Of a stretch of DNA of 64,000 nt, positions 8,418-41,585 are shown one piece after another (positions within the stretch are counted from its first letter, which is position 1; the number at the start of each line of letters is the position of its first letter). The translations under genes were made by a program, and so were the position numbers. Where the stretch lies: positions 1-64,000 of the forward strand of contig JANQNK010000004.1 in NCBI GenBank assembly GCA_028279595.1, read 5' to 3'. The DNA is from Thermoplasmatota archaeon. Lineage in GTDB: Archaea; Thermoplasmatota; JAKEGO01. The notes under the pieces are model-generated. The model had not been told where the DNA came from, made no database searches, and was given only the letters and a program-made list of their open reading frames with translations.

Positions 8418-8705
8418 CTAACCATCTGTATCGCCCTCTTCCTCGACATCCGACTCTTCGTCGTCCTCATCATCGGAGTCTTCTTCTTTCGAGGCCTCAT
8501 TAAGATCCTCGTCACATTCTTCATCGTCGAGGGTATCAGTCTCCTCGTCATCCTCGGAATCATCATCTTCCATTAAGGATTCTGGGACATACACCTCGAC
8601 TTTCGAGCGGATAACAACAAGTCTGTCGGGATCATCGTCTATGATTACGACGGACTCGTCGTCATCTTCCAAGGGCGTTTCAGCCCCGTGGCTTCCAGTA
8701 CTCAT
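8418..8705 (-). CDS. Small, very acidic hypothetical protein
   Basis: 95-aa ORF dominated by Asp/Glu, with a short beta-rich core; GAGG upstream of the ATG. Confidence 0.55.
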   Translation of the reverse strand: MSTGSHGAETPLEDDDESVVIIDDDPDRLVVIRSKVEVYVPESLMEDDDSEDDEETDTLDDEECDEDLNEASKEEDSDDEDDEESDVEEEGDTDG

Positions 8706-8822
8706 GGTTCCACATCCTCAAGGAGCATCATGCACCCTGAGTTATTGTTGAATCGGGACCTCGTCAGTGCAGTCTGGGAAGATAATTGAGCTATTGTGTC
8801 ATAGACTGCGTATTGATCGGAT

Positions 8823-9167
8823 TTATTGTATAAATATCTCATATTGTTCGCCAACTGTAACTGTAATATTATCTCCCACATGGAAATCAAATCGTTCGAG
8901 TTCAGGACCGTCAGTACTAATCACAACTCTTTGTTCTCTCGAAATGATGACTCTGTTCTCGTCGATGGAACTCACATATCCAATGAACTGTGTCCAGGGT
9001 CTGATAACGAGACCAGATGCACGTAATTCGCCGTGTATCTTACCAGATACACGAGATTGTTGATCCTTCAAGATAGTGCTTCGGTATTCTTCACCTTGTA
9101 GGGTGGTGTGCTCATTTTTCTGTCGTTCAAATGTTTTCTCTTCCGCCTGGCTGTAGGTTTCGGGCAT
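8823..9167 (-). CDS. Hypothetical protein with a small beta-barrel-like C-terminus
   Basis: FIGYVSSIDENRVII...FHVGDNITVTV suggests OB-like strands; no family recognised. Confidence 0.5.
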   Translation of the reverse strand: MPETYSQAEEKTFERQKNEHTTLQGEEYRSTILKDQQSRVSGKIHGELRASGLVIRPWTQFIGYVSSIDENRVIISREQRVVISTDGPELERFDFHVGDNITVTVGEQYEIFIQ

Positions 9168-9261
9168 CTAGGTACCGAATGATATATAGAATGGATAATC
9201 TTTGGGACCTACAAATTTGATGAATTCTCATAACCGAAAATTAATTAGATGCTGAGACTAC

Positions 9262-9771
9262 ATGCGGATCATGGAATCTCCAAACTCGCCTGATTCAAAT
9301 CATGAGCATGAAATACATGATGAAATCACGAAGGATGATTCACGTTATGGGATTCGCGATGATACAATAGAAATAATTGACGAATATCTAGATGGTTGGA
9401 CAATACCTGATGAGGTCATCTCTCCAAATAAAATCGCGAAAGGGGTGAATACAAATCATAATACTGCGAGAGCATACCTGCGTGACAAAGTCCCTCGAAC
9501 AATACCTAATGTGGATCGACAAGACATTCGGACTCAAGTAAAACATGTCAAAGATGATTGGGCATATATTGAACGTATAAATGATGAACCAATCATCTAT
9601 GTGAAGGGGCGGTTTGAGAATTTACAAAAAACAAAGGCAGCCTTACAACAGAAAGGATTTCGAGCTGGATTAAGGAGCCATAGAAAGGGGCGACGTCATC
9701 GGCGGTTTAAACGGCTCTCCGGACGTAGCAAATTAGTACGTGAGACTGAGTGGATTCTCCCGCCGGAATAG
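9262..9771 (+). CDS. Hypothetical DNA-binding protein (HTH-like) with basic C-terminus
   Basis: ISPNKIAKGVNTNHNTARAYL fits a helix-turn-helix; Arg/Lys-rich tail. Confidence 0.55.
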   Translation: MRIMESPNSPDSNHEHEIHDEITKDDSRYGIRDDTIEIIDEYLDGWTIPDEVISPNKIAKGVNTNHNTARAYLRDKVPRTIPNVDRQDIRTQVKHVKDDWAYIERINDEPIIYVKGRFENLQKTKAALQQKGFRAGLRSHRKGRRHRRFKRLSGRSKLVRETEWILPPE

Positions 9772-9981
9772 TCGAATATTGCACTCAATATTACCTCTGA
9801 TTCTTTCTTCTTCGAGGAAATGTCTGTTCAGACTTAATCAACCATAGGACACGTGGGTGGGGATACCCCTCCCTCCCCCCATAAGATTTATGCCTTTACC
9901 TATGTGTATATGGGCATGTAAGGGGGTGTCTTTGGAGGCTCCGATTTACGATTGAAATTATACTATGAACCATGCCCTTCG

Positions 9982-10041
9982 AGGCATCTCCCTAGGCACC
10001 CCCCAAGGCACCCACCGAGGCATCTCCCCAGGCACCCCCAT
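9982..10041 (+). repeat. Five tandem 12-bp units AGGCAYCHCCCN (iteron-like)
   Basis: AGGCA begins at 9982, 9994, 10006, 10018 and 10030, an exact 12-bp period. Confidence 0.85.
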
Positions 10042-16640: not shown

Positions 16641-19600
16641 TTAGTCTCCCATGGCCTTGTCGAGGTCCTCCATCATCTTGTCGTAGTCGTCGGGTCCGGA
16701 GTCATCGGATGCCTCTTCGGCCGGGGCATCGTCCACAGGTGACTCGGAAGGTTCGTCCATCGGTGGTTCGTCGGCAGGGGATTCCTCTGAAGAAGGTTCG
16801 GGGGCCGGATCATCGGTGGCGGCCAATGGTTCCTCGGCAGGAGGTTCGGTTGGAGGTTCATCAGCAGCGGTCGGTGGTTCCTCAGCGGGATCGTCCTTTG
16901 TTGTTTCCTCGTAGAGTTCGTCCTCGGCCGACTCTTCGGGAGGGGTGTCATCCGGCGGTCCATCGACGGGGGTGTCCTCGGAGGGTGTGTCGGCGACGTC
17001 TTCTGAAGGCTTGTCCTCGTCTGGGGTTTCCTCGGAGGGTTTGTCATCGTCGGAGGGTTCGTCCTCCTTCTCCTCTCCATCCTTTTCCTCCTTGTCCTCA
17101 CCCTCCTTGTCCTCGCCTTCCTTCTCCTCGTCGCCCTCCTCCTTGTCCTTCTCCTCGGTCTCGCCCTCCTTGACCTCCTCCTTCTTGCCCTTGGCGGCCG
17201 GCTTCTTGCCCTTCTTCTTTTCGGCCTCCTTCTTCTTCTTGGCTGCTCCGGGCGGGAGGATGCCCTTCTTGAAGAGGACGATGATGAGGAGCACTGCTAC
17301 GACTATCAGGATCAGCAGGAGCGCGATGGCAGCTCCTGCGCCATCGTCTTCCTTGTCCTTCTCTCCGGAAACGGGTTCGACGTAGAACGCTGGTGCGAAC
17401 ACCGTGAAGTGGGTCACGTTGGCCCACATGTAGTTCTCCTCGGTGTTGATGCCCCATACCTCCGGGGTCACCCATTCCTCTCCGTCGTAGTAGTACAGGG
17501 TCAGGTCTGCCTCGTCCTTGCCCTTCGGTATGTTGGACTCGTCGTACGGGATCTCGAAGTATGCCCAGACCATCTCCATGGCTGCCGGTGCGCTGATGTT
17601 GACGAACACGCCGACATCCCTCAGCGTCTCGGGCATGTCGGGTTCCTCCTCGAGGAGCCCGATGCCCACATCACCGATACCGCTGTATGCGATCACGAGG
17701 TGGATACCTGCGTTGTCGTAGGTCTTGATCTCGTTGATGACGGTCAGGTTGCCGCCATCCAGATAGACTTCCGTGATCCCGTCACTGGCGGAGAAGTTGT
17801 ACAAATAGGTGCCCGGCTCCATCGATATGCCCGCGGTGTAGACAACGCCATCCTTGTATCGATTATCCAGTTCCTCCCTGAACATGAGGAACCCAACACC
17901 GTTCAGTAACAGGGTCACATGATCGGGTCGGTCGTTGTCGATATCAGTGTAGACGACAGAGAGATCGAAGGTCTCACCAACGAAATTCCATGATGAGGAT
18001 GCCGTGCCATTGGTAAGAACAGGTGGGGCCAATCCCTTAACCTCGGGTCCGGTCACGTTGTCGGTGAATACATGGTTCAATCCATCGGAACAGAACATCC
18101 AGAAGGAGTGGCGGTCGGCCGGCAGATCGTCGAAGGACCTGTAGTACAGGGTTCCGTTGCCAATGGGGCCACCTTCGAACATCGGGTATCTGACGCCATC
18201 TACCTCGAGGGTCATGTCGGACGTTGGGTCATCGTCCTCGTCGGCGTAGACGACCGTGAAGTTGTATGTGTCTTCGGTCGTCCCGGTGACCGGTGTGACC
18301 GCTGGATCTAACAGCATCGGGACATGGTCGATCACGGTGTACCCGTATGTCCTTGTCATGGAGGTCGGTCCGATCAGCTCCATCGTGACGTTGTAGGAAC
18401 CCCGAGGCGAAGCAGGAATGAGGAATTCGAATTCGGTCTCCGCCTCCTCGTCGAGATCTTGCTCATCCTCCAGGATACCGTTCAGGAGAAGCCTCATGGT
18501 CGTGTTCACCGTCCCGAAGGTGGTGGCTGTGACGGTCACTGTGTCACCTAGCATGTAAACGTCCTTGTCCGTTCCTATACCCAGTATGATGACCCCCTCG
18601 ACGTCGAAGGTCTCAACCCCCTGGTCAAGCCGCAGGTATTCCTCGCCCTCGGCCCAGTAGAGTCCGTAGTTCATCGTATAGACCCCGGGTTCGACCCCAT
18701 TGATCGGGATCGAGATGGTGAAGAAGTTCATATCCTCATGTACAAGGATGTCGTTCTCGGACGTGGTGATCGGCTCGTCCCTTGAATCGTAGATCCAGAA
18801 GTTCAGGTATCCAGTGAATTCATCCCTGCTGTCGATCGCAATATCCAGAGTTACCGTATCGTTAAGCTCGTAGGCGGCCTTGTCCATCTCGATCTCGTCG
18901 ATCTTCGCATAGAGCCCGTCGATCTCGAAGCTGAACATTCCGGGGATGCTGTCGAACGTGTATCTCATCTGATATGTGCCGGCGGCCAACTCTGGGACAG
19001 TGTACTCAAGTACGCCAGGACCGTCGATGTACGCGTCGACGGTCTCGCCATCGGGGCCGGTCACGTTCAGGTCTCCGGTCCTGTTGGCAACTACCTGCAT
19101 CCTCATCGTCTCCCCGGGTTCGTACACCTGTTCCTCCGGATAGATCGAGATTATCGCGGACATGACGCTTACGTATAACGAGCTGAGGTAGAGCGCGCGA
19201 CCCGTGTCCATGTAAACGCCGAAGAACACCTTCTTCTCGCCGACGTCCTCCAGTGGCAGCAGGAACTCAGTGGTCTGCTTCTTCCCGAGATCGAAATGAT
19301 CGATGTACTCGACCCCATCGAAGGTCGCCTTCACGTACATACCAGTAAGGTTGACGTCGAGGCTCTTGGCGGTCGTGTTGATGACCTCGATGGTCAGCAG
19401 GGCGGACTCGCCGGACTGGTATATCGGTGAATCCGTCGATGCATTCACCTCGAAGCTGATCCCCTCGACCGCTAGGGTCGACTCCCAAGTTGCAGTGCCG
19501 ATAGAGTAGTACATGTCGTAGTCGCGGCCTTCGAGGTCATCCGGGATCGGGACCGTGAAGTATACCGTCGTGCTCTCCTGTGGATCGAGGTCGAAGGGTT

Positions 19601-22600
19601 CGAGGTCGGCGTGTATTCCCGGGATGCTCAGCTCGAGGTTGTCGGTGCCTGCGATCTTCCCTACATTGATCACGAGGATGGCTGCTGTGTAGTTCGTGCC
19701 AAGCGTCGCGACCAGTGGAGATGTGACCTGCGCCTCGAACTCGGCTGTCGGTATGGTCATGTTCGTGTCGATGACGACGATCTCCTGACCTCCGACCGAG
19801 AGGATTATCGAGAGGTTGTAGGTCTCCGGATCGAGTGCCGATATGTCGAGAATGAAGTCCTCCTGCAGCTCTCCCCACAATGGGACGTTGACGGACCTTT
19901 CCTCCGTATAGAAGTCAGTGACCATTGACAGGTCGCCGACTATTTCATTGGATCCTATGTTCAGAACGATGACAGATGCGTTGAGCTCACCCTCGGTCAC
20001 CTCGATCTCCAATTCCAGCTCCGCGGTGTTCTCGTCCGCGACGAACAGGTCTTCGGACCCACTGCCGAACAGGGATGTCCAATTCATGAGATAATGGCCC
20101 ACGGTCAGGTTCCATACCGTATTGTCCGAGACCGATCCGCCAGAGTTGACTGTCACCTGTTCCGTAGCCGAGTCTGCTGTTGACCAGCCGTCGACGTCCA
20201 CGGCCTCGAACACTATATCGAAGGTGGAATCTATGTCGCCCGTGTTGTTCACGTAGTACCAGACCTCGACGGACCCGGCGGAGTAGACCACTTCGGGTTC
20301 GACGGATATCTCGTTGGACTCGACCATCTCCACCAGCACGTAGAACTCGTCCTCGACGTCACCTGTCACGTTAACCGTGAACCAGGTGTCCTCCGTGATG
20401 GTAAGCGTCTCCTTGACGGTTGATGTCTCCCCGACCGGAACCGTCACCACATGGTCCTCGGTTATGCGGACGGTGATGTCCGCGTCGACCGTTCCGGTGT
20501 TCTCGACGAGGACGGTCATGTTGAAGGGCGCTAGGCCGACCTCGTCAGGTGCAGTGATGGACACATCGACAGAGGGTTCGAGGACGGGCACGTGCTCGGT
20601 AACGGAAGAGTTTTGGGCCGATCCATCGCCGGCGTCCAATGGTCCGGGTGGAGGATTGATTATCACGATACCGGTGATGTCCGTGGTCACGGCGGCACCG
20701 GTCTCGGCCTGAACGACATAAGTTGTGTAGGCGTCCAGGTCCAGGGTCTCCTCGGTGAGCAGGGTCTCCCCGTCATATATCATCACCGTCATGTTCTCGG
20801 TCTCGTTGCCGTCATTGAACAGGGTCGCATTGATGTAGATCGTCTCACCGACCTTGTAGGCCTTCTTGTTGAGGTCGAGGGTGAGGTATACAGAGCTGTT
20901 CGTGATGTAGATGCTGGTCACGTTCTGCGAGATGACCTGGCCGTATACGTTCAGGAGAGAGGTCAGCAGATAGAGCTTGCCCGTGGCTCCCATATCCGAA
21001 GCGTTCGGATACATCAGGAACTGCTGGGCCTCGAGCTCCGTAATGTTGACCCCGAAGGTCGCGTTCCACAGCGGATTCACTCCGTAGAGTATCGCGGTGT
21101 ACTTCGGCTGCGTCTGGCCGGTGAAGGTCTTTACCGTGGGTTCCGGCGCGACGTCGATGTAGTAGTTCCGTTCTCCGACAGCCGAGCCGGTACAGGATTG
21201 GTCGATGTATGTGGCCTCCATCCCGGTCCCCGGATCGAGCACCGTCACGATGATCTTGTAGTTCCAGTAGGTGTTGCCATAGGACATCCGGATGCGCCAT
21301 GTGCCGGGCTCGTCGAAGTACCACTTGAACGTCCTGGTGCCGTAATTGATCGGGTACTCTCCCTTCTGATTGACGATGCCGCCGATCTCGTCGTAGAGGT
21401 AGAAGTAGGCATAGGTCCAGTCGTAGCTCCAGAACTCCGAGACGACCTCGACGGATAGAAGGGAGCCCTCAACGGCACTGATGGTGTCGCCATTCCCGAA
21501 CTCGCCGGTAGCGTTCGTGACGTTGAAGTAATAGTACCTTGTGTGGACCTGGGTCCCTGAATATCCCTCATGTGAGTAATGCTGGACCGTGCCGTTGGGC
21601 AATACTATTTCGACGTCGAGCCTGTAGTTCCATGCATATCGGTCGAAATGGACATAGATGTACCATGATCCGTTGGTGTTCAGATCGACCTCCAGGACCC
21701 TTTCGGGATCCCATGCCCTCGAGTCGGCAAGGTAGGAGCGCTGCACGGTGCCATCGCCATCGTATATGCGGAGATGCCCATCGTATGTTGGGTCGGTCGA
21801 CGTTATGGTGGTCAGGTTGACCCGCAGGCGGGATCCGGCCGGTACATCGACGATCTCGTCGTAGGTGTATCGGTCGTATCCAGTGTCGGTGACGTTGATG
21901 AAGTAGTGCCTGTGGGAGGAGGTCGAAGAACCTGCCGTTCCACTGTGGCTGGCCGCCTCGACGCCGTTGATGAGGATGGTCACCTCGTAGGTCCAGTAAA
22001 AGTGTGAGTAGTACATGTCGAGGCAGTACGTACCGTTGCTCTCGAGGACGTAGGTGATCGTGCGTTGGCCGAAGTGCTGGACCTGGGAGTACCATCCGGC
22101 GACGGCCCATACACTGTCCCAGACGCCCGGATCGGACTCGGAGTACCTGAGCTTGGCGAAACCATCGTAGCTATGGTAGGAGTAGGACTTCGTGGTGACC
22201 TCGATCTCGACGACGTCGCCCTCCTGAGCGGTGATCACCGAATCGTATGTGAACAGGTCAGCGGTGCCGTTCACGTACAGATAGTAATTGACCGTGTTCG
22301 TGAACCAGGACCCGGCCCACCCGGCGTGTGTGTACGTTATCTCGGTACCGTTCGGGTCAGTGACGTTTATCCTTATCACGTAGTCCCATCTCTCATACTG
22401 GTACCAAAGACCGACCGACCAGTTCCCCTCGGAGTCGGCGATGTAGGACATCTTCCTCTCACCCCACGAGGAGGCATCGTAGATGTACCACCCGGTGACC
22501 CTCGATAGCGGACTGATGATCCAGGATTGACAGTCGCTGCCCGAGTTGATGTAGCCAAGTACCTCGATGCTGACATTGATGGAGGAACCGTACATCACCG

Positions 22601-25600
22601 GGATGCGGGTGCCGTTGTAGTCCCGCTCGGCGATCGTCGGTTGGATGGTGTGGTCGTTGTCGTTCTCGTTTGTCTCCTCGACCTGTGAGTCGGCATCGAC
22701 CGTTACGGTATAGTTCTCCAGACCCTGTCGGACTATGTACATGAATTCGACGTAGTAGGTGTCGGTCTCGTTCAGGCCGTTTATCGTGAAGCCGTCGGAG
22801 TTGACGCCGTTGTCGTATTCTGTAAGGAGGGTGCCATCTCGGTAGAACCTAACGACGAAGTCGCGATGGACGGACGCTCCGGTGTTCTCGATGGTAGCGT
22901 TGAATATCAGGACGTCGCCGTCGCTCAGCGTCCCGACGGGGTCCGAGTCCACCAGGTACGAGTAGGATAGGTCGCTAACTATGAGGTTGGATGCGAAGAC
23001 CTCGGGCATCGTCTCTGTCCTGTCGTTGTTGTCCTCGTGATATTCAGCGATCGTGTCGGTGCTGTCCGTCTCCGCCGTGAAATCCCAGATCCCGGGTGTG
23101 GCGCGCCACGTGAAGGTGGCGACGGCGGATCCGCGCGATCCCAGCATATCTATGGAGTCTGCCCCGATCGAGCTGCCATTGATCTGGAAGTCCACCGTGA
23201 ACGGGACCTCGGCGTCCCATCCTCCTGCATTGTAGACCGTTGCATTCAACTGGTAGTAGTCCCCGTCTATGAAGGGGGTCGGGTACCATGTTAGATCGGT
23301 CACGATGAGGTCCGGTCCGATCACGTGGAAGGCCTGTGACCAGTCATTGTCGTTCTCGTCGGACTCGTCGCATATATCGTGCGGGTCGACCACGATAGTC
23401 ACTGTGTGGTTGCCTGTCCGTGACCACCACATGATGGGCACCGTGACCTCGTAGCCGTCCTCGGTCCCCGTCACGTTCACAAGGGAATCGAGCACGCCAT
23501 CGACGTACAGACCGAGCTGGATCTGGTGGAGGGTGTCCCCACCGGTGTTCTGGACATCGACCTCGAAGGTGATGCCGTCGAGGTTGTGGTAGGTCCTCAC
23601 ATCGTACCAGACGTCGTTTATCGTCAGGTCGGGGATGGTGACGGCCGAATGGGTCTCGTCCCATTCGTTGTTGGTCTCGTCGTCCTCGCGGATGTCATCG
23701 CCGTGGTCGGCAACGAACGTCAGGTTGAGATGGCCGGCTCGCGCAAGCCATGTGAATAACACATCCTCCCACGTGGTTCCGTTCAAACCGTTGACGCGCT
23801 TGGATTCGATGTGTACTCCATCCATCAACATGCCAACGTAGAAGGCACCGCAAGCCACATCGCCGGAGTTCTCGACACGGACCGTGAAGTCCACTCTCTC
23901 TCCGTCGTCAGTGGCCGGGGTGTAGCCCACGGCGAAGATCTCAAGGTCGACGCCGCTAACGTAGATCGCTTCGGTCCTCGAATTGTTCGTTTCGTTGTCC
24001 TCGTTCACCCTTCCGGTGGGGTCCACAGTGACCGTTAATGTCGTGGAATCGCCCATGGTGTGCCACGGGAAGGTCAGGTTCAAGGTCTCGGCGGACATGA
24101 TGGAGGTCACGGTCTGCCTGGCGATCGGGTACCCGTCCGCGTGGAGGTCGACGTAGAAGGATTCGTAGCAATCGTTGCCGTCGTTGTAGACGCTCACGTT
24201 CACGTCCATGGTGCGACCGCTGTTCGGTACGGTGTCCCACCAGATGTCGGTCACGGTAAGGTCGGGACGGAATATGTTCGTGAAACTGGTATGTTCGTTG
24301 TTGGTCTCGTTCGACTCGTCCACGGTCCCCGCGATGTCCGCGACGACCTTGATGTTGTGTCCGGTGTTGATGTCCCTCCAGATCAGTGTGGTGACGATAC
24401 TGTCGCCACCGTCCGGGACGGACTCGCGTGTCACTCCGATGAGGTTGCCGTTCTCGTAGAAGGCAGTGTGGAAGGTCGTTGGCCTCCACAATGTATCACC
24501 GTAATTCGTGACGGTCGCGTTGATGTAGATGTCACCCATGTAGACTGCAGCGGATTTCGAGACGAAATCGACCTGCAGGTCCGCCACGGGCATTGTGCCG
24601 TTGATGGCCCACACGACGGAGTCGTTGAAGATATTACGTCCGACCGAGTAATAGTACTGTGGATCGTATGTGAACATCACGCCGCGACCCCCGGTGGTGG
24701 CGTTCTCCCTTGTGAGCACTGTCTTTCGTTCTGGCGAGTAATTGTTCCGTCCGCGGACGGTCCAACCTGCAAGGGCGGGGTTGGATATCCTGTATGCGGT
24801 TGCGGGGCTCTGGACTGTATGGACACTCCCGACGGTGTAATCGGAGAGGACATTCGAGTTGTCCTCGACATACAGGTTAAGGTATTGAGTTGTGGTGGAA
24901 CCGCTCCAACTTCCACCATATGTGTATCCCGCAGGACCGAGGAGCAGAACAGGTATGGCGTCGTCGATGAGGCCGTTGAAGAAGGCGCTGCCATGACTGT
25001 AGTCGCCGCTGTACGAAGGCATGACGACGATCGAAGCGTTGTCGTAGATCGCATTGCGAGCGCTGTGCCTCGAGATGTATTCCACCGTGTAACCGAGGTC
25101 GTCGAGGTAACCGTCCACCGCGGACTCGCGTGCTGATAGGGTCGGGGTCTCGTCGTCATCACTGACGATGATGAGGACCGCAGCACCACTCGAGAACCTT
25201 ACCTTGTCGACCGGCTCTTCCATCACATAGGCGACCAGTCGATCGAAGGTGTCGTTCCCCTGTACCGTTAGGTACCGTGGATCGTAGGTGAACACGGCGC
25301 CAACCGCGGAGCCGCTCCCTGTGTCCCTTATCAGGCATGTCTTCCTTTCACCGCTGTATGCGTTCCTGCCGATAACCGACCACCCCACCCATGACGGGTT
25401 GGACACTCTATAGGCGGTGCCAGCATACATCATGTGTGAGTTGAAACCGCCATACTCCTCCATGAATCCGGTCGTGGACTCGGTGACCAGCCTCAGGTAG
25501 TTGCCAGTCGAGGACGAGCCCCAGCTCGAGGTGGAGATCAGGTACCCGCCGTTGTAGATGAGTCCAAGGCCGACACCGTTGTCGACGATTCCGTCCATGA

Positions 25601-28600
25601 ACGTCTTGCCCACCGGGTAGTAACTGCTGTATCCGGTCGCAAATACGGCGCGGACTCCCGAGAAGTCGGCCCGCTTGATCTCCTTGTGACTGATGTAATC
25701 GACAGTGTATCCTGCGGCGATCAGCCGGTCCCTCACGTTCGCTTCGTTCGATGAAAGGGTGGGCGTCAGGTAGTCCTCGCTCACCGTCGCGATGACCACG
25801 TCCGAGCTGAAGGTGTGATACGGTGTCTCCTTGTGCTCGATCCAGTCGATGGTCCTGTTGAAGAGCAATCTTCCTGCATAGTTGTAGTAGTACGGATCGA
25901 AGGTCAGGATCACACCGCGACTGCCAATCGTGGTGTTGTCATGGATGATCGCGGTCTTGCGTTCCCCGCTGTAGGCGTTCCTGCCTATCCATGTCCATCC
26001 CGAAGGTATGGATGAACTCGAGAACCGCCATGCCCCTCCTGTCTGGACCTGGAAGTTGTATCCGCCGTAGTCCTCGAGGAACCCGGTGGCAGATTCGGTC
26101 ACGAGACGGAGGTAGTTGGCCGTCGTGGACCAACCCCATCCCGAGGTGCTGATGGTGGTCGCTGCATCGGCGAGCATCAGAAGTGGCGTTCCCGAATCGA
26201 TCAGTCCGATGGCCCACTCGTTCCCGAGTATCTTCCATGAGTTGTATCCGGCCATGACGACCATCGAGACGTTCGAGTAGTCGATGAACTCGGCGAGGTA
26301 CTGGCCGTAGTAGGAGATGGTGTAGCCTCTATCCTCCAGCATATCCCCTGCCGTTACCTCGCGATTGTTCATTATCGAGGGATCGGCGTTCGCCGTCAGG
26401 ATGAGCGCATTCCCCGAGGGTACTGTGTAGGCAGGGGCCGGGTGCCGGGCAAGCCAAGCTGTCGCCTGCCTGAACACCTCCTTGCCCTCGATGGTGAAGT
26501 ATAGCGGGTCGTACGTGATCATCGCTCCCCTTCCGTCGGATACCGAGGATTCGTTGTAGAACATGGTGTGTCGCTCGCCACTGTAGAGGTTCCGGGCTAT
26601 CGTCGTCCAGCCATACGGCGGATCGTTGGAGAGCCGATACGCGTACCCGCCGGATTGCATCGTCATCGAGAAGGAGTGGAAACCTTCCAGGAAGGCTGTG
26701 TCGCTCATGACGCCGGCGTTCAGGTAGTTGCCCGTCGTACTCGCGCCCCAGCTTCCGCCGTAGCTCTCGCCGGAGTTGTACATGAGCAGAAGGTTCACCC
26801 CGGAATCGATCATCTGATTGTAGTAGGTGCCGTCCGGACTGAGTCCTCCGTACCTGTGGGGTACTGCGACGAGGAGCGCATTGGTGAGGTCAACGTTCCT
26901 GAGTTCGATATGGCTGAGATAGGTGACGTCGTATCCGTTGTCCTTCAGGAGGGTGTCGACCGCCCTTTCACGACTCGTCAACGTCGGGTCCCGGGAGGTG
27001 ATGTCCTCGACAACGAGCACTGCTGTGCCATGCTCTACCGCGTCCTCTGGCCAGCTGTTGTTCGCCAGATAGTCGAACGTCCTCCTGTAGAGGTGTCTTC
27101 CGTAAGTATTGAGGTCGAATACGTCGTAGGTCAGGATCGCCCCGCGACCTCCGCTGGTCATGTTCTCGCGGATGAACGCGGTCTTGTGGTCCACGCTGTA
27201 GACATTTCGACCGATGTACGTCCATCCAGCGGGATAATTCGCATAGATGTAAGGCGTGTTGGTGGTGAGGGTCGTATAGAACGACAGGTCCTTGAGCCCG
27301 GATGCGAAAGCGGTGTCGTTCTCGCCGAAGAACTGCCTCATCCTGTAGTCGGTGGACCAGCTCCATGAACCGCCCATGCCCTGTGCGGCATATGCGAACA
27401 GTCCGATGGAGACCCCATCGTCGATGAGCCCGTGGATGAAGGACGATCTGATGTAGTTCCATGTGTTGTACTCGGCCATCACGACGAATTCCGCATTCGA
27501 ATAATCGCCGCGCCTTGCCTCCTTCGCGCTGATGTACTGGATGTCGAACCCGTACCTGTTGAGCAGGTCCCTTACCTCCATCTCCCTGGATGTCAGGCTG
27601 GGGGCCTGGTAATCGTAGCTTGAGATGATGAACGCGACCTTTCCACTATCGATCTGGATCGTCGGTTGGGAGACATCCTCCAGATAGTCGATGGTCAGGT
27701 TGAAGAGCCATTGGCCGTCATCAGCCAGGTATCTCGGGTCGAATACGAAGACGGCGCCCTTGCCGCCGGACGTCCCGTTCTCCTGATACAGCATCCCGTA
27801 GTAGTTGGCGGTGTTGCTGTAGGATGCGACCGTCCAGTTCGCGGGGATATCGGCGTATATGAAATCGTATCGGGTGTCGGTAAGTGTCGTGAAGGTATAG
27901 CTGTCGTAGTCCGATAGATATCCAGTGCTATCGATGATGACGGAATTGTAGTATGATGTCGAGGTGCCGTACGACCATGTCCCTCCGATGTTCCGTCCGC
28001 CGTACGAGAGGAGGAGTACCTTGAGACCGCTGTCGATCCAGTCCTGGACCATCAACGAACCCACGTGGTCGTCGACCGCCCACTCGGTCATGACGATGAG
28101 GGCGGCATTCGACATATCGTATATCCCGACCTCGTGGTCGGAGACGTATGTCACGGTATATCCGTGGTCCTCGAGCATGGACGCTGTCTGCGCTTCCCGC
28201 TCGGTCAGGTACGGGATCTCCTCGTGTTCGGATTGGATGACGAGTACGGCGTTGCCTGCGGGTATCTCCCGCCTCACGACATCCTCGTTGGCAGCCCACG
28301 TCATCACCGATGAGAATACAGCCTCACCCTCGCTCGTCAGCCTGTGCGGCACGTACGGATATATCGCTCCCCTGCCGCCCGACGTCATGTTCTCCCTGTA
28401 TCCGCTGAACCAGTAGGCGCCCTGCTGGTCGAGGGGGGTCCATCCGGATGGATATGTATTGTACCAGTACAGGCAGTACAGGTTCACATCCTGGAATGTC
28501 TGGACCGTCACTCGCGATCCATGGTAGGGCTCCATGAACGCCTCGTCGCTGCTTCCGTAGAGGTATCCATACGACGAATAGGAGCCGGATGATCCAAGGC

Positions 28601-31600
28601 TATAGGCGCCGTACCACAACAGGACGACGGAAACACCATGGTCATCGATCAGCGTGTCGATGTCATCACCGTCAAGGTCCCAGGAGTTGACGACGACGAT
28701 GATCTCGTAGGCCGAGAGGTTCGTCACGTCGGCGCTGTCATCGTCGATCAGCTCGACCCGGAAGTTGTTCTCGGAGAGGAGGAACACTGCGGCGTGTTCG
28801 CCCTGCGACAAGGCCGCCGGATGATCCACGACGAGCGCGACCACCGGTAGGTTGGTCCTGAAGATGGGTGTCTTGTTGATCAACCCGTCGCCGTCGGTCG
28901 CCTCGATGTAGTAATAGACCCTGTCATCGACGGTGACCGTATCGATCGTGGCGGACCAGGTGTCCACCGATGATGTCATCGCGGCGCTCGTCCATGTCTC
29001 CATGTCCGTGGAACTGAAGAGTGTTGCACCATTCACACCGTCGCTATCCGTTATCTCTGCGGATATGACGATGTCGTTCCCGCTCGGTGTCTCGATGATG
29101 TCCGTGATCACCGGAGGACGGTTGGCGAAATAGGTGGTATACGATGACATCGGCGAACGTGCCGTGTTCATAGCCATGTCCGCCGTCTCCACATAGTATT
29201 CGACATCGATCTCGTCGTATGACGGCGGAATGTACGCGCGGTAGTTCACGGTCGGTTCGGTCATGTACTCGATGACCGTGATCTCCGAAACGACGGCATT
29301 GATCCCGGTCAGGGACTCGAAGACCAGGGTCATGTTCCCGTCGGAGTACGAATCCATCGGTACGGGAAGCCGGTAATTGTTCGGCTTGTACTCGGGCAAT
29401 GATATGGGCCCGTGGACGACGTAACTCCCCGACAGGAGGCGCTGGGTCCTCTCCTCGCCAGCGTTCTGCAGGTAGGTGACCTCGACGACGTAATGATCGT
29501 CGGGATCTACGGGGAACCGGTAGATCACCTGGGAGTCATGGCTCCTGACGGTCCTTTCGGCCTTGGTCGTATGAGGCCAAAGTGCCTTCCATAGGGATAC
29601 GGGATCCCCCTGCACGAGGTATTCCTCGTCGACAAGACCGCAGTCCGCGTAATGCAGGACCGATCCGTTCTCGTTGACGTTCTCGTACATCCTCACACGG
29701 GTCTCAGTGCCCGTCGCGTTGTGGACGAGGTAGGCCCCCAGGACGTCGCCGCCCGATATGTCGGCCTCTATCGGTATATAGTCATAGGCGTTGCGGTCCG
29801 TGCCGTATTCGGTGTGATCGTCGATCGAGGGTGCCGACAAATCGATGTCGACAGTGAAGACCTCCGTTGTGTTGACGTTCCCTGCCAGGTCCTCGACCTC
29901 TATGTAATAGTACAACGTACCGCCGGAGGCGCCGGGTATCCGTGCGATGAGATCTCTCGGCACGCCGGAGGACGTGATCGACTGATAGCTGTGGCCAGTC
30001 GTGTAGAAGTAGTTCGTTTCCTCGGGTGTACCGTTCCCGGTGAAGTTGTAGACGTGCAGCCAGTTGTAGTTGTTGTCCGCGTACACGACCTCGACCTCAC
30101 CGTCGCTGTCGAAGTCTCCCCAGTGGGGGACACGGAGCGAGTGGAAACTGGAGGTCCGGTATGATATTATGTCATCGACGACGATCAGCTCGTCCTCGTA
30201 GTCGCTCTCGTCGTAGAATTCATAGACCGTAGTGTTGAAGAAGTACACTGTCGGACCCGAGGGTGGTACATACCAGTCCTCGTACCCGTACACCGCGACC
30301 TCGTTCCTGCCGTCGCCGTCGTAGTCCCAGACATCGCTGACGTATATGTAGTACCCGAGGTCGCCGCTCTGATATTCGAGCTCGATCCCGTCCATGCCGA
30401 TCTCGTAGATGTGGAGCTGGCGGTACGTCCCGACGATTATCTCGTTCAGGCCATCGCCATCAAGGTCGCCGATCTCCATGTACTGGAAGTCGATATCGTC
30501 CGAATACCAGACCAGTTCAAGCACTCCCTCGACCAGGTCGTAGACCTCGAAACGGTACCAATCCCTCCCGATGATTATCTCCTCCGCCGGATCGTCATCG
30601 ATGTTCACCAGTTCCATGTCCCGCGGGTAGATGGAGGTCCTGAACATGTACTTCAGTTGGTAATCGTAGCCCGCCCATTCGTAGACGTAAATCCGGTCGT
30701 AATAGGCCGGGATCACGATGTCGGGGATCCCGTTCCCGTCGATGTCGCCGACATCGATGGTGAACACAGACGTGTCATAGGAGTGATCCACCTCGTCACC
30801 GAGTGTCGTCTGGAGGTCGTATCCGCTGCCGTTCCACTGGTAGACCTGGGCGAACGTGCCATCGGTGTCGCTGTTCGCGGAGATCAGGTTGGGGACACCG
30901 TCCATGTCGGTGTCCGCGATCGCGTAGGCGGAACCCCTTGTATACAGGTAACCGCCATCGGGGTTGTGCTCGATGCCCCAGGTCTTGTTGATGATGTAAT
31001 TGCCGTAGTACGTACCAAGGACTATCTCGGGTTCACCATCCTCGTCGATGTCGGTGGTGTCGCTCCTTGGCTCGAACTCGACCTCGGTGTAGTTCACTCC
31101 GTCGTAGCCGTAATGGAGCGTGTATCCGTCAAGTCCGAGATTGTCCGATGCGAAGGCTGAAACGTCGATCGGCATATTGGCCGAGGGTACGGTGGGGATG
31201 GACGAGATCGTCCATATGTCGGGGGGAGTGTCGTCGGTCACGTAGTAGTTGCCGATCGATGTGGTCTGGTGGCCGAGTGTGTCGTTCACGATAATGTAGT
31301 AGTACACCCAGGTCGTGTTCCCGGTCGCCGGGATCTCCGCACTGTAGATATCACCCGTGTTGTCCATGATCCCGTACGACCAGTTGTAGGCTGCGTACAC
31401 CTCGATCTCAGCTAGTCCTCCGCCGGCGCCGAAGTAGGAGTCGACATGGAACCTCATGTAGCGAGCGGCTACCGGGTTCAGGTTCGCGGTGTACCAGTTG
31501 ACGATGTCGTCCTCGACAAGTGTCCCGGAGTGGACCACATCGAATTCCACACCGTCCAGGGAGACCGAGAGCCTGAAGTTCCCTGTCGACCTGTCCCAGT

Positions 31601-34600
31601 ATCCAGCATTCCTCGTGTTGAGGAGGTTGACCGTGTCGACGAGGTAGGTCCTGTCGAACTCGAGTTCGAGGTATGCGCCCGAATAGTAATTGGATGTCAA
31701 CCAGTAGTTTTGCTGCGTGGAGCCGTCCTCACCCAGCCCGTCGATCGCCTCCTCGGGGGCGAACTGTGAGCTGTAATAGTCGTTCGCCGTTATCGTGGCG
31801 CCCATCTCGGTCGTCGCGATGTTCCAGGGCGAGGACTGCACGCCGTATATCAACACGGCCTCCTCGATCCCCTGAGAATCGGTGATCGGCACGGATACCG
31901 TGACATCGTCATCGCCGGTCGGGTAGAAGGGATCGGGAACGGGGTCCCCTATCCATGCTGGTGTGTCAAGATAGGCTGTGTATGTGGGTGACATCGCAGT
32001 GTTCCCGGCGAGGTCGATGGCGGTGACGTAATAGGCGACCTCGGTGGCGTTGTACGGTACGTTCGCGTACCACACGCGGAGCGTCACGTCGTAGATGTCC
32101 AGATCCTCGTTCCACATGAAGGAGTTCCCTTCCGGATCCAGTCCGTTCAGGGTCCCGGCAACGATGGCGATGGTGTTCGTCCCGTCGAGTATCGTATCGA
32201 ACGGTACTTCGAAGACGTTGCTGGTCGAACCGACCTCGAGGGTGCCGAGGACATTGCCCGCGGTCCTGTTCGGCTCGTTGAACCATACACCATCGGTGTC
32301 GTGGTCGATACCGCCGGTCGATATCGTGAGGGTCGCCCTGACGATGTCCTCCGGATCGTCAACGTAGACATTGACGTATGCCACGTTGCTGGCGCGGCTA
32401 TCACCGATGTAATGGTCGCCGCTGTTGAGGTGGTCCTCGTACTCCTCGTCGTACGCCATGAAAGCGCCCCAGCTATCGTCCGTTTCGTAAACATCGGCAT
32501 GGAACCCGTATCCGGATATTCCGGTGTCAGAGGTGAACCTGATCAGCAGGACGTCATCATCGACCCAATCCGTCCATAGGTCCTCGTGCCGTCCAGTGAT
32601 GGTCTGGATCAGGTTCTCCGAGCCGTCGTAGATCCTGACCTTGTCCAGTCCCTGCTCGAGCTCGATCTTGGTGAAATGGACCCTTATCGCTCCGACGCCT
32701 GTCTCGGTTATTGTGTACCAGTCATCGACGTTCGAGTCGTAGGGATGTGTCGACTCCACGCCGTATACGTATTGATCGACCCCTGCGCCCGCCATGTCCT
32801 CCATGACCTTCTCACCCGTCCACACATCGTCACCATCGTAGGTGAAATGGAGAGAGACGCTCTGGACGCCCGTGTCGTCGCTCAGGCTGGCCGTGACATC
32901 GATCGGGTCCATTGTGTCGAGCAACGGGGTCGTCGGATATGTCAGGATGTCGTCGATGGCCGGTCCTTCTCCGTCGACGAAGTACGACTGCACGGTCGAG
33001 TTCTCCCATGTGTCGTTGATGGTGTCTTGGGTGACGATGTAGAAGTACGTGGTCGTCGTCATGCCGGCAGGTGGCAGGATCGCCTTGAAGATGAAGGCGT
33101 CGTCGTAGAGTGCCTTGAAATGAGCACCGAGGTCCTCCTGCTGGACTGCCGAATAGTCGTCCCAGTCATAACCCAGATAGCCGTCATCATCGTGGTCTCC
33201 ATCGACGATTATCCCGCCGCCGTGATAGATGAAATGGGACGTTGTCGAGTGCGAGACGAAGGATTTTATGCCCGCGTAGGTCACCCTCCTCAGGACCTCC
33301 TCGAACGTATAGTGGTCGGTAACGACCATGTGGCCGGAGGCTGCCCCGTCGATCACCGAGTCCACATAGTTGTTGTAGCGGTAACCGTCGAAGAACAGTA
33401 TCTCGTTGTCGTAGAAGTCATCGTCGGGCAGATAATTGTTGTAGGAGGCGTACCCACTGTTGTCCGTGTCGTAGGTCCCGGCATAGCCGGCGACCGGCTT
33501 GAGCCCGTAGGTGTACTGCCAGTAGTAGCCCTTGCTCCAGCCGGCGGTCGTCGGGGTCTCCGTGGCAGCCTCGATCACCTCTGCCTGGGTCCAGTTGCCG
33601 TCGCCCATCGTCCCGTTGCTGTCGAAGCTGTACATGATCGAATAGAGAGTGTTGTTGGTCTCGTTCCAGAACCCGAAGCTGACCTGGACCTCCTCCGATG
33701 CGTTGACGTACTCGTCGAGCACCCTGACGTTATAGAATCCCTCGGGTGCCTCGATCACGGGATCCATCGGGAGGTCGTCCCCGGTCCGGGAATTGAAGTA
33801 TACCGAGTAGAACCGGGATGCGGTGTCGTTGGTCGTACCGTTCATCGTCCATGTGATCTGGACAAGGGCGTTGTTCTCCGCATCGTAGGCACGGTCTAGG
33901 TAGTGCCCGAACTGGGTCGCATATCGGAACATATTCCGGGCCTTCCAGGTGCCCTGGGTGTTGTACGGATATCCTACCTCCTGCGCCTCGAGGATGAGGG
34001 TTCCGTCGCCTATGAACCTCTCCAGGGTAACGCCGAATTCGTCCGTGTCGGCCGAATCGACGTAGATCGGGTCGAAATCGTCCGACTCCCAGTTGGTCCA
34101 GTATCCGTTCGTCTCAGAGTAGCTCCATCCGTTGTAGCTCTGTCCGCCGCTGATGTCCGCGAGCGGGTGGTCATCGTCCACCAGAACGACGTTGTCGTTC
34201 CTCCATCCGGAGACGTGGTGGACCCCGAAGACGTCCATGGAGATGGTCGGGCACATGAAGATGAAGACACCACCTTCAGTGACGTAGTCGACTATCGTGT
34301 CCTGAGTATCCTGGTTCCCGATGTCGAACTCCGATGTGGCCTGGATGCCATCCATGATGACGATGTCGTAATCGTCCAGGTCCTCGATGATCGTGGAGGC
34401 CTCGGCATCGTTGTACTGGACGCGTTTTACCGATTGATAGTATCCTGTCGTCCTTGCAGCAAGGTTGTAATCCGTCCTGCTTCCGACCAGGTAGAGGAAT
34501 TTGGGCTTCGGTGAATAGGTGTTGTGGAAGAGGTCGCTCGCAAGAGGTACCCCTGCCTTGACCTCCGACTCCACCACCCATTTGATGGTGTTGTCGGCCG

Positions 34601-37600
34601 AGTATTCTACAACGATTATCGAATCCTCGTCCAAGGCCCGGTCGAATATACCCATGTCGGCGAAGACCTCGGTGAAGTTGACCATCAGCCGGACCTCTGC
34701 GTCCGTCCGGTTCTCCCCGGATGTGTTGATCTTCAATGGCATCCTGTAGCGCAGATTGGTGCTGTACCACGGGCTCTCGCCCTCCATCTCGCTGAGGTCC
34801 GACGAGAATGCCTGGACCAGCAGTGTGCCGTTCTCGATGGCCTTGCCGATGTTCGTCACGTTCACCATTATCTCGACGCCGTCGGCAACATAGTACACGG
34901 TGTCGTTCGCCGCCACGGTCATATGGGCCTCCAGTCCGTCGATCACGAGCGTTGCCGTAATCTGGATGAGGTCCCCGGTCTCGGTGTCCTTGGCGTTGAT
35001 GAGGGTGAAGTACTCGCCCGAAAGGGCCTGGTCGAAGATGTCGTATCCGAAGGTGATGTTCTCGTCGGCCATTATCGAACCGTTCTCCTCCATCCTCGTG
35101 AACCTCTGGTAGTGCGGATCGAAGATGTCGAGACTGAAGGTGTAGTTGGTATCGACACCGCCGTCGTTCCTCAACATGACGTCCAGGGTATCCTCGATGC
35201 TGAAGGAGAGGTTTGCCAGGTGGAGTTCGAGCTGCGAGGACGGTATCGTGAACTGGAACTCGTGATAGGCCGTTTCGTTCTGGGTGACGGTTACGTTGAT
35301 GAGGTGGGCGCCAGCCATGAGATATGTCGGAAGGGCGAAGACGGCCGACTGAGTGCTTCCATCTCCCGAGTCCAACAGCACGTTGTAGGCATCGCTGTCT
35401 CCGGTCTCGGGGATCGATATGACGATGTCAAGGTTCTGCTGCCATACTCCGGAATCGGTGATATTGAGGGTGTATCCAAGGTCCTCGCGGATGCGGTAGG
35501 AGGGCTTGTCCAGGTCGACGGTCAGGGCGTACCTGTTGGGGAGATCCACCCGTCCGGTCAGGGAACGGACGTCCCACAGCACCTCGTAGGCGAGGTAGTA
35601 CGTCCCGAAAACAGGCTCCGGCACGGTGATGTTGATCTCCTTCGATATCTCTCCATAGGCTGGTATTCCGAAGGAGCTGTTGACCATGGCGAGCTCGACG
35701 TCGTATGGATCGAACAGCTTGACGGAGAGCTTCGCGCCGGTCGCCGGGAGGGGACTATCGTTAGAGATGTAGACAGTGAACGTGTTGTTGGTGTTCGGAA
35801 CGATCGGATCCGGCAGGTCGACCTTCCGGACGAGGAGCTTCGGTCCGACCTCGATGAACTTGCGGTCCAGGGTCTGTTGACGAGATCCGCTGAACAGTCG
35901 TGCGCGGACCATGTACTGGCCGAACTGCATCGGGGCCGTCATGTCGTAATACTTGATCTCAGTCGAGTGGGCGGGCACTGTGATGTATGTAGTCGCCGAG
36001 CTGTAGGTCGTCTGCTGCAATCCGTCAAGGATGTCGAGGTATATCGTGTAGCTGAGTTCGTTGGCGTTCGGATTGTAAACGGACATGCTTACATTGATGG
36101 TCTCGTTCGGAGCGTAGTCGTCAAGGTTCGTGATGATATTGATTATGCTGGCTTGGCCTTTCAGTACGCCGTACCGGCGCTCTATGAAGGCGATCTGGTC
36201 CCCTGACCAATCGGATCCGGTGTACAGATAGGAGACCGTTCTGAAATCCCACTGCGAGGTCGCAAAGCGTTCCGTGTACTCGCCATAGGAGTTCGGGGCG
36301 ATGTTGACGTTCACCTTGTGGTACCAACCGTTTGCAGCGCCGCCGTAACCCCACCATAGGACGTGGCCCCTGCCCCACACACCGAACTTGACGCTGCCAT
36401 TGAACCAGGTGTCCTCGTGGTTGTTGATGAAGAACGTGACGAACCCAGGTTCGCCTCCGTCATCGTCGGGGCTTCCGTACGAACCTGTGACGTAGTAGTA
36501 GTTCTTGTCGAAGACCACCCAGAAGTCCACACCTTCCGGTATCACCTTCTTCAATGATTCGTTGAAGTCGCTTAGAGCAAAGGCATCGACGTCGTTCACG
36601 ACCGTGATGTTGTGGAACCCGTTATCGGCTCCGATGTAGTCGACCCGGTAGACACCGTGATCGTCGTATCCGGCGAGGTCGTTGAAACTCCCACCGACAG
36701 CTTTCACGCAATCTACGACCGTGCCGTTCGGTCCGATGATTATGGCGTACTCCGCTTCCATACCGGTCGAGTTCATCTCGAGCGGTATCGGGGTCTCGGG
36801 CTCGATCGTCTCTACGCTCGATGGTTCCGGCACCATGAGATAGGAGAGCATCGCGTCGAGGATCTCGATCTCGTCCGAGGTCCCGGACCCGAAGACCATC
36901 GCGAAGTCAGGATACATCGTCGTGGCCATGATGTACCCGTTCCCGTATGGATACATGACCATGGCCGGCATCTTGTTCGCGGCCCTGGTCAGCAGAACGG
37001 TGGCGTTCGTCGGCCAATCCATGAAGAAGCCGTCGATGTTCAGATCGAGGTAGACCTCGCCCTTGGAGTTCGGGGCCTTGACCTGGGACATCGGAGAGAA
37101 GACCGGATTGTAGTTCTCGATGTAGACGGAGCCGAGGAGACAGTTCTGGTCCTCCTGGTAGCCGTACCCGTCGAGTCCGCCGGGGAGTCCGGCCCACTCG
37201 TATCCGTACTGCTGGGTCATCGCAAGGATGTTCCCGCCGTTCTCGAGGAAGAGTTCGAGCTTCAATCTGACGATGTCCGATCCGCCGGAGGGATCGGTGA
37301 GGTCGTAAAGACCGCCCGAGGGGACGACAAGGACCTTCAGTTCGTTGAGCTCATTGATTGTTATGGTTCCGAGGTCCACGAATCGAGCATCGCGTCCCGT
37401 GCTGTTTATCAGCGTCATCATCTCGTTCGGGAATCCCTTGTCAACGATGCCGATCTCGGATTCCGGGGCATCCGTTGAGGTCACGTTGACCACATTGCTC
37501 CCGAGGACGAATACGTCGTCCGGATTGTAGGGCGGACAGTCCTTGGGGTCCTTGCATGGATCACAATTCGGCTGGTATGGGTCCTCGCAACACCATCGCT

Positions 37601-40600
37601 CCTTGTAATCCTGGATATGGCTACATTTATCACGTCGGCATTTCTTGTCGTCTGGGTTGATACAACATTTCTTGTTGTCACCTTCCAGCTCGTCGCAGCA
37701 CTGGCCGGTCTCGGGGTTCGGATCCTTGCACTCATCGCACTTGATCTTCATCCTGACCGTGTGTTTGGGGCGTTTACTGTCGTCGGTGGTCCTCTGGAAG
37801 ATGCAGCCGTACTTGTCGACCACCTTCATCTCGTAGTTCTTGGTCTCGCCGGCCGGTATCGTGACACGGTGCGTCCCCTTCCAGACGTCTGTATCCACGT
37901 ATTCGGCGGGATCGAGCTTTTCGATGATGGCGGTGAAGACCACGCCGCCATCCTCCTTAAGGGACACCTCTATCCCTTTACTTGGAACGGTACCGAGATT
38001 GTAGACCTCCATGTTTATGTCGTAGACACACGGTTCGTTGTTCTCACCGCCCGAGACCTTGACGGCCCGTATCTTCGCCCTGGGTTTGACCTCGCATTTT
38101 CGACCTTTGTCGGCAATGTAATCAATGAGCTTCCCGACCTGGGGACATATCAACTTGTTGCCGAGCCACCGGGCAGCGTAGAACGTGATCCTGTAGATCA
38201 GTGGAGCCGTCGCCGCGCCGATCCCAACCGTTAGTCCGGTGACGCCGGTGACCATGATGTTCCCGAGGGTAGCGTCGGCGATCAACCCTATGATCTCACC
38301 GCAGGCCCAGTCGAAGACTATCGTTAGGAACAGGCGTATACAACACCAGATGTACGTGGCGACGTTGAGCGCGGTCGCTGCCGATCCGAGGACACATTCG
38401 ACGAAACGCCAAACTTGGATTATGGCTTTCGCTATCTTTGGTATCAGGTCCAGCGGGATACCGAGTACGTCTCCGATCGGGCCCAGGATCTCAGCTGCGA
38501 AATCGAGAGCGCCCTCGATGGTATTACGGAACCATTCGAGACCTTCCCTCTCGCCTCTCCAGAGCTTTCGGAAGTTGTTCAGGACCTCCTGGACCTTTGC
38601 CTTTGCCTTGTAATACAGGTTCTTGATGATCGATACTGCCTTGATGCCCAGTTGCTTGGCGATGGGCTTTATCACCTTCCATTGCTCAACGATCCAATCC
38701 TTGATGTCGCCCGCAAGGGCCCAAAGGTCCTTGATCACCTTGATGAACCAGATGGCGTGCTGGTATTGGGTCGACAGAACGATGTTGGCGACGGCGCCGG
38801 TCTCAGGATCGACTATCCTGAAGGCGTAATAGAGCACACCGTCGACGATTATGCCGGCAGCGATGATGTCGACCTCGTATCCAAGGTCGATCGCATCCAT
38901 TATCCTCTCTAGGACCTGAGAGGGAAGCGTGACGTTCGCCAGTACTTCTTCGTAGTTGTCGGGCGTGATGTGAATTACCGCAATCCCAACCTGCGAGGCT
39001 ATCCCGAGCAGGTCCTCGTAACTCACGGCCCGGGTCTCGTTGAAGATGATGGCACCGACCATCGACTCGATGTAGGACGAGTATTCGCCCGAGTTCAGGG
39101 TGAACAGATAGTCGGCCGTGACCGGGTCCCGCTGCTCCGGGCGGAAGCTCGCCTGGACGGGATCCCTGAGCAGGTCCAGCGAGTACAACGGTGCGAAGAC
39201 AAGAGGTGCCCCGAATCCGAAATAACCGCCGCTGTTGGCGATGACCGCCGATGGGCCTGGGCGCCACCACCATCCGAGGAGGTCCGCAGCCTCGGTGTCG
39301 TAGCTCTCAGCGACCCAGACGTGGAGCATCGTTGCGGCCATCTCGAGATAGGCGTCTGTGGCGTCAGAGAGGGAGGCGTTCTCGACATCCCCGTGGTTCT
39401 CGAGTCGGAAGTTGAGGGTCCTACCGTTCATCTTTCCAACGTCGAAGCTGACCACGGAATCCGCACCGGCCACCGATACGGAGTTGGTGGTGTCCTCGCC
39501 CCAGGGCGCAGTGAATGTGATTGTGAGGTCGAGCGTATCACCGCCGTGGAGCACCATCGACGAGGTATCGATGGTCCTGGCGTTCATTTCGAGTGCCGGG
39601 GTGTAGCCTATCAGGAAGGGGGGAGCATCCCTGCCCATCTCGTCGATCAGGTCCTGACCGGTAGAGGTCGGCTCATACCTGATGTGCATCGGGAATGTGG
39701 CCATTCGCCCGGCGAAGCCGGAATAGCCCACCACGGAGGTGCCGTTATCCTTCAAAGTGACCGTGATCGTATGGCGCAGCGCGGTCGGGACCTCGGCGTA
39801 GTTGTCCGCTCTGGCCGTTACCGTATAGTTGAGACCTGTCGGGAACGCTGTCCTGTTGGAGACATCGGGCTCCTCGTAGGCGCTGAAGTTGGCGGCCCCC
39901 GAAACATAGGTAGTGCCGTCACTGACGAAGGTTCCGTTGATGGCCTCGAGGTCCTCGAAGTTCCATGACGGGTCCATCTCGACCCACTCCCCGTCCACCC
40001 AGGCCGCAACCCAGTGGTGCTCGAATATGATATCCGAGCCCATCATGTCGGCGGGTATCCCGCAGGACCGGAGGATAGCGGTCGCATTCTCCTGGGTATC
40101 GGTCCGCAGCCAATCTGCGACGTCGGCCCAGGGCGCTCGAACAGTACCGAAGACATACCGGCTGGCCACGTCCCTCTCGCGGAGCATGGCGATCAGTAGT
40201 GACGCCTGGTCGACATCGTTGCCGGACCTCTGCATAAGGGTCTGGTCCGCTCCCTTGAGCGACCCGAGGTACGGCTCATAGGCCACACCCTCGAGGACCC
40301 ACCAGAAGAGCTTCTCGACATCCATCGAGTTGGCCTTCTGATACACGGACTCGGATGACCAAGCATCCTTGGTCTCGTTCAGGTCCGCAGCCGTAGTGCT
40401 GACCGGCAGCGCGCTCGTGTCCATCACCGGTTGGTCCCCTCCATCGAGCTCGATGGTGAAATGTGACAGGGGATCGAGGTCAACACCCGAATCGGGGTCG
40501 GCGACGGTCGCTTCGTACACGACGTCCAGGACGTCCTGTATCTCAGCCTGATAGTTGCGGATGGATCGGAGTACCGCAACTTCACTGATGTCCTCGGGCC

Positions 40601-41285: not shown

Positions 41286-41585
41286 GGTTTCATCTCCGAT
41301 CCTCGCACCCAAGGATTAGCCCCCACGGCGCCCATCCACGGTCCCCTGGATAGCGACCGTACGGTAACGGATGCAGGGATAATAAGATTAACCCTCGTAA
41401 TTGACCTACTGGATTGTCAAATTTTGCACAACTAATTAATATCGAAATCCATGTCAAATCTAGCCCGATCTTACCATTGTTCCAATGATAAAGGTCAGGT
41501 CGAGAATAAACGAAACGATGTAAAAGAATGTTCAAAAAGGTAATATATCAATTACCGCGAAGAGGAATGTAGAGAAGGGATCGAC

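Follow-up and report, generated by a model that had tools for sequence, protein, structure and literature searches.

Ig-like "split domains" have been described in the Gram-negative RTX adhesins AhLap, FrhA and MpIBP (Graham et al., 2024, as cited in PMC12077191; PMC10865825), where the passengers are single ligand-binding domains of ~17–30 kDa each (PMC12077191). Insertions are also found in the alpha-2-macroglobulin (A2M)/C3 superfamily, in which the LNK and bait regions (or ANA) are inserted in MG6 and the thioester domain is inserted in CUB (PMC9156758). In this study, we describe a giant surface protein of an uncultured Thermoplasmatota archaeon (assembly GCA_028279595.1), encoded within positions 1 to 64,000 of contig JANQNK010000004.1; this whole stretch of 64,000 nucleotides is called the window. 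An earlier note, made from the sequence alone, had described a passenger of ~4,570 aa that appears to lie inside one Ig-like stalk domain of this protein. Our analysis confirms what was seen and largely bears out its interpretation, and the insert is placed here at 4,576 aa (residues 2171–6746). With a probability of about 0.85, one MG2/CARDB-type stalk domain is the host domain split by this passenger, and its halves fold together as a domain of ~100 residues. The features concerned are as follows.

16641..41312, minus strand: the whole gene, for a surface protein of 8,223 aa (open reading frame list and translation; Pfam Transglut_core; collinear orthologues in three other Thermoplasmata genomes).
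34929..35234, minus strand: intact stalk domain d4 with the "NDGGVDT" motif, residues 2027–2128, directly N-terminal of the split domain (conserved with the N half in ~100 of the 150 listed representatives).
34803..34928, minus strand: N half of the split domain, residues 2129–2170, with strands A, A'/B and C, ending in ..GTLLVQAF (21.0 bits to a family hidden Markov model (HMM) built without this protein; strands from DSSP of a low-confidence model).
21075..34802, minus strand: the passenger, residues 2171–6746, ~40 domains (Pfam, internal repeat map and collinearity with the orthologue in genome G001).
20901..21074, minus strand: C half of the split domain, residues 6747–6804, with strands C', E, F and G and the motifs W, TGKLYL, GQVI and IYIT (29.3 bits to a family HMM built without this protein).
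18348..20900, minus strand: intact stalk domains d5 onward on the C side, residues 6805–7655 (AlphaFold2 confidence, Foldseek and collinearity with residues 1405–2270 of the homologue P0016).

The N half thus has 42 residues and the C half 58. The two stretches that had been quoted as the halves map to residues 2133–2169 (window from ~34916 down) and 6747–6804 (window 21074–20901). To compare them as one unit, a joined-halves HMM of 100 positions was derived from 74 other proteins, whose two halves were concatenated, and the present protein was excluded. It matches the protein in two complementary pieces, residues 2129–2172 at HMM positions 1–44 (19.6 bits) and residues 6747–6804 at HMM positions 45–100 (21.3 bits). 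When the passenger was scanned with the same model, no further half-like segment was found; therefore, the two halves pair with each other and not with hidden partners.

The family behind this model was obtained by searching a profile of d4, the N half and the passenger start against 1.84 billion representatives, which gave 257 matches; the counts given here are drawn from the 150 of them that were listed. About 100 of these 150 stop at profile position ~145, which is the last residue of the N half, and in 74 of those an HMM of the C half plus d5 matches downstream at full length (~23–73 bits). The insert between the halves is 134–1,490 aa long in these 74 distant homologues and falls into at least 21 unrelated classes by BLAST clustering, such as Laminin_G_3 in P0045 and VWA in P0028 (both by Pfam) and a parallel beta-helix in P0014 (ANME-1). 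Family members occur in archaea (Thermoplasmata, ANME-1) and in bacteria (a Pseudomonadota metagenome-assembled genome (MAG), a protein with a type IX sorting domain and an RHS protein). Conservation in the family ends directly after "LLVQAF" in the N half and begins again at the W of "PLW" in the C half, and the flanks just inside the split are wholly different between insert groups. Homologues with shorter or different inserts at the same loop, which the earlier note had suggested looking for, therefore exist.

In two homologues the halves are contiguous. The joined-halves HMM matches P0149 continuously at residues 1100–1204 (positions 3–98, 58.7 bits) and P0144 at residues 1515–1618 (positions 2–94, 41.3 bits); both unsplit domains directly follow a d4-like "NTGGVD" domain and carry a Cys-flanked loop of 10–12 residues at the position where others carry inserts. 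Thus, the two halves together make up one ordinary stalk domain of ~105 residues. A small version of the whole arrangement is P0016 (3,062 aa), whose residues 570–1096 align to 1733–2254 here and 1405–2270 to 6754–7612 (E 5e-50 and 2e-71); its insert is 372 aa long and has the first passenger domain in common with this protein.

In one bacterial subgroup (P0095, P0099, P0068, P0149 and P0144), a Cys closely follows the N half and a second one closely precedes the C half (..IVN-x-C ... C-Q-E..). Both are retained with a 10-aa loop as well as with a domain of 134–142 aa, which points to a disulfide that clamps the insert at its base; our archaeal protein is without the Cys pair.

Profile comparison places the joined halves on intact stalk domains. 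With profiles of 75 family sequences, hhalign aligned the joined halves to d5 at 97.7% probability over 76 columns (score 63.9) and to d4 at 94.7% over 83 columns, comparable to the 97.3% of d4 against d5. The N half alone aligns only to d5 positions 5–42 (97.1%) and the C half alone only to d4 positions 44–85 (73%). In a control with the order of the halves swapped only one half aligns, and ten column-shuffled controls gave at most 1.5%. With shallow profiles of three to four orthologues the probability did not exceed 47%, which is insufficient for a decision; an HMM iteration from d3 did not spread to the other, very divergent stalk domains, and MAFFT gave no usable alignment of the stalk domains. 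The halves are hence a conserved pair, contiguous in some relatives, separated by many unrelated inserts in others, and jointly matching an intact stalk domain.

Covariation was analyzed in the 75 sequences, with an effective number of sequences (Neff) of 72. The block between the N half and the C half has a positive mean by mutual information with average product correction and by direct coupling analysis (DCA), like two within-domain controls, and all 12 between-domain blocks are lower. At this Neff, the top DCA couplings connect residues 2162–2168, the last outgoing strand, with residues 6749–6757, the first returning strand, as would be the case for an insert in place of a beta-hairpin turn.

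An AlphaFold2 model of the C junction (residues 6592–7620) has a mean predicted local distance difference test score (pLDDT) of 67.7. Values of 55–86 are found for the PPC-like domain that precedes the junction and for almost all later stalk domains, and of 70–86 for the intact stalk neighbours, in agreement with the earlier statement that regular stalk domains resume, here beyond residue 6804. Foldseek matches of the stalk model include chains of MG/Ig-like domains in the alpha-2-macroglobulin family (A2ML1, ECAM), C3, C5 and GhpA. Pfam MG2 (PF01835) is found in homologues with 83–100 bits at a cut-off of 32.8 (94.7 at P0016 residues 563–651; 99.6 in P0149); in this protein there is no MG2 match at E ≤ 0.01.

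The chief competing explanation is that no domain is split at all. In that case, the C half and the 25 residues upstream of it (EPTVKTFTGQTQPKYTAILYGVN) would make up a small Ig-like domain of six strands, and the N half would supply additional strands either to d4 or to the first domain of the passenger. Such a domain would comprise residues 6719–6804, 86 aa, which is the size of the intact d5 and d6; AlphaFold2 places a strand at residues 6737–6744, and "QPKFTALLYG" is conserved among three close orthologues. However, conservation in the family does not begin before the W of the C half and the preceding residues belong to each insert, while in P0149 and P0144 the C half directly follows the N half. 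In intact domains, the C-half profile also matches the second half only. Moreover, residues 6725–6805 (the C half plus ~25 residues upstream) have a pLDDT of 41–48, the sole long stretch below 50 in the C-junction model, against 70–86 for complete domains at equal alignment depth; this is expected for a domain without its partner strands and not for a self-sufficient small domain. The scenario in which each half completes a domain with neighbouring sequence, named earlier as the one that would count against an insertion, is thus not supported, since family conservation is confined to the halves and the flanks are specific to each insert. We regard it as improbable.

It is just as improbable, in our estimate, that the halves are relic linkers, which descend from a split domain and no longer dock here after the passenger grew to a 4.6 kb coding sequence. 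The insert is indeed three times longer than any other seen, and structural support for this protein itself is absent; yet both halves keep the family core motifs (21 and 29 bits against HMMs without this protein), and both junctions are conserved among close orthologues at 47–60% identity, like the adjoining intact domains. These orthologues come from three other genomes of the same phylum (among them one Thermoplasmata MAG contig and another annotated Thermoplasmata protein), and they also bear on an assembly artefact, by which two giant genes would have been joined and the halves would come from different proteins. The genome is a 21-contig MAG, 86% complete, and adhesin genes with repeats are easily misassembled. 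However, one high-scoring segment pair on contig C70 of genome G001 spans residues 35–6575, contig C39 of G022 aligns to residues 4439–7667, and the two are collinear with an overlap of more than 2,000 residues; G002 covers both ends of the protein. The GC content along the gene is uniform (0.56–0.585). As overlapping independent assemblies are collinear, the long passenger is real and inherited collinearly, and an artefact has the smallest chance of the explanations considered here. Further relatives were found neither in two metagenome scans, nor by a word-index protein search at similar length, nor among solved structures by a PDB sequence search, and a scan of genome contigs returned only the already known G022 contig.

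Several observations weigh against the split host domain. The covariation signal is consistent but weak, as it comes from 75 sequences. The AlphaFold2 model of the N junction, based on 4 sequences, has a mean pLDDT of 39 and was used for strand positions only; the two junctions were modelled separately, and neither three-dimensional model shows the halves docked. The conserved strand QPKFTALLYG of the orthologues, just upstream of the C half, is not assigned to a domain. In none of the relatives do the two junctions lie on a single contig, although overlapping contigs span them. Finally, the next longest insert seen has 1,490 aa, about a third of the present length, and to suppose that this host domain folds by analogy with relatives that have short inserts is therefore an extrapolation.

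We infer the docking of the halves in this protein, the geometry of the branch and the function as follows. The first three to four strands (residues 2129–2170) and the last four (6747–6804) would fold into one domain, and the passenger would exit and re-enter through the position of the short C–C' hairpin loop of unsplit relatives. With its passenger on a split domain, the protein would be a three-way junction. The C-terminal helix would anchor the protein, so that the C-side stalk rises from the membrane to the split domain, and the N-side stalk with a transglutaminase-like head would extend beyond it. The passenger, with its ~40 lectin-, propeller-, CARDB- and PPC-like domains, would form a lateral closed loop fixed at its two ends. 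In this arrangement, a pull between head and anchor would be carried by the host domain without loading the passenger, and the N half would necessarily remain unpaired until synthesis and export of the entire passenger are complete. The likely function is the lateral display of a multivalent binding array outside the line of tension between head and anchor.

The passenger begins with a DUF2341-like domain that carries a nested alpha/beta insert, followed by Ig-like carriers with CUB, discoidin-like and FG-GAP propeller modules. Its later part consists of seven alpha/beta repeats of ~205 aa, six CARDB domains and then four to five PPC-like domains; the CUB, FG-GAP, six CARDB and PPC-like modules were found by Pfam. 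Among close relatives the passenger is collinear at 42–51% identity. The proposal of a "swappable cassette" therefore holds across the family, with its unrelated insert classes, and not among the three related Thermoplasmata genomes, where the passenger is stably inherited; recent swapping among close relatives is rejected on the same collinearity. In the orthologue of G022, residues 2957–3082 (a module of ~126 residues, window 32067–32444) are missing, with collinearity on both sides. This gap is the sole difference at the level of modules seen among these relatives, and it reflects the gain or loss of a module within the passenger.

The first domain of the passenger is interrupted in turn. 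Residues 2181–2254 and 2475–2515 (window 33768–34772 for residues 2181–2515) together align with a DUF2341-like domain that is unbroken in P0016 and P0041, and an alpha/beta module of ~220 aa (residues 2255–2474) interrupts it as a second level of nesting. The giant passenger may thus have grown by accretion inside an older, smaller insert. An intein or other self-excising insert was considered and rejected: the ends read SDLSEM...ILYGVN and then P, there are no junction motifs and no Hint match in Pfam, and the inserts of relatives are ordinary binding domains. A mobile cassette was likewise rejected, as boundary motifs are absent. Comparison of the boundary sequences found no DNA words of ≥10 nt common to the two passenger boundaries, and with no compositional break either, nothing points to a recent mobile insertion.

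The gene itself is one unbroken open reading frame of 8,223 codons. From the N to the C terminus, the protein consists of a signal-like segment (hydrophobic, residues 21–45), the transglutaminase-like head (Pfam Transglut_core, residues 330–448), a stalk, the split domain with its passenger, a further stalk, a transmembrane helix and an acidic tail. Two further features belong to this order.

35235..36161, minus strand: intact stalk domains d1–d3 on the N side, MG2/CARDB-like beta-sandwiches, residues 1718–2026 (collinearity with P0016 residues 570–1096).
17271..17333, minus strand: predicted C-terminal transmembrane helix, residues 7994–8014 (hydrophobicity of the translation only).

Within d1–d3, the joined-halves HMM has a weak full-length match at residues 1725–1813. 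The tail of ~210 residues after the predicted helix (residues 8015–8223, window 16644–17270) is rich in Lys and then extremely rich in Asp, Glu and Pro, and is presumably cytoplasmic. Elsewhere in the window, a low-GC island lies at 4001–10000 (GC 0.39–0.43 against 0.55–0.60 elsewhere) and contains an open reading frame of 1,399 aa (3953–8152, minus strand).

In bacterial adhesins, split domains serve to locate the parts that bind ligands, and each passenger described in these proteins is a single domain. If our reading is correct, the split-domain design is also present in giant surface proteins of archaea, on a macroglobulin-type host domain, and a single conserved socket takes from 0 to 4.6 thousand residues. 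This may well be the largest domain insertion yet described: an MG-type socket of 42 + 58 residues, common to bacteria and archaea, whose halves are 4,576 residues apart and must meet outside the cell. It would represent a general, size-tolerant site for cargo display on fibrous surface proteins, and a fibrous protein of this kind may have a branched instead of a linear shape, with over half its mass on one loop. Since the first half of the socket can pair only once the whole passenger has followed it, the protein would be a natural test case for the folding of a host domain long after export of its first half, and also a natural scaffold for very large insertions. For annotation, the case is a warning that domain-by-domain parsing of giant proteins can overlook such long-range pairs.

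The protein is neither an RTX adhesin nor a member of the A2M family, because the defining modules of both were not found by Pfam. On the whole protein there is no match to RTX, T1SS, BIg extender or N-terminal retention families, and the C terminus is a transmembrane helix with an acidic tail; nor are there thioester, receptor-binding or A2M families, and a lone CUB match lies just above the gathering score. In RTX adhesins, and probably here too, a small beta-sandwich stalk domain is interrupted, the passenger buds sideways and the chain returns to complete the host domain; the passengers there are binding modules (CBM, vWFA, beta-roll), and nesting of an insert within an insert occurs there (PMC12077191) as well as here. 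However, the RTX passenger is one domain, whereas here it has 4,576 aa and ~40 domains; the host domain is BIg there and MG2/CARDB-like here, and the present protein is archaeal with a C-terminal transmembrane anchor. With the A2M/C3 proteins it probably has in common an insert-tolerant MG-type host domain of ~100 residues, but their inserts comprise tens to ~300 residues against 4,576 here, and there is no evidence for orthology of the split domain with MG6. What is new here is an insert about three times as long as the next one in its family and over ten times as long as the classic examples, an archaeal host, and one socket that is found empty, with one domain, or with ~40 domains.

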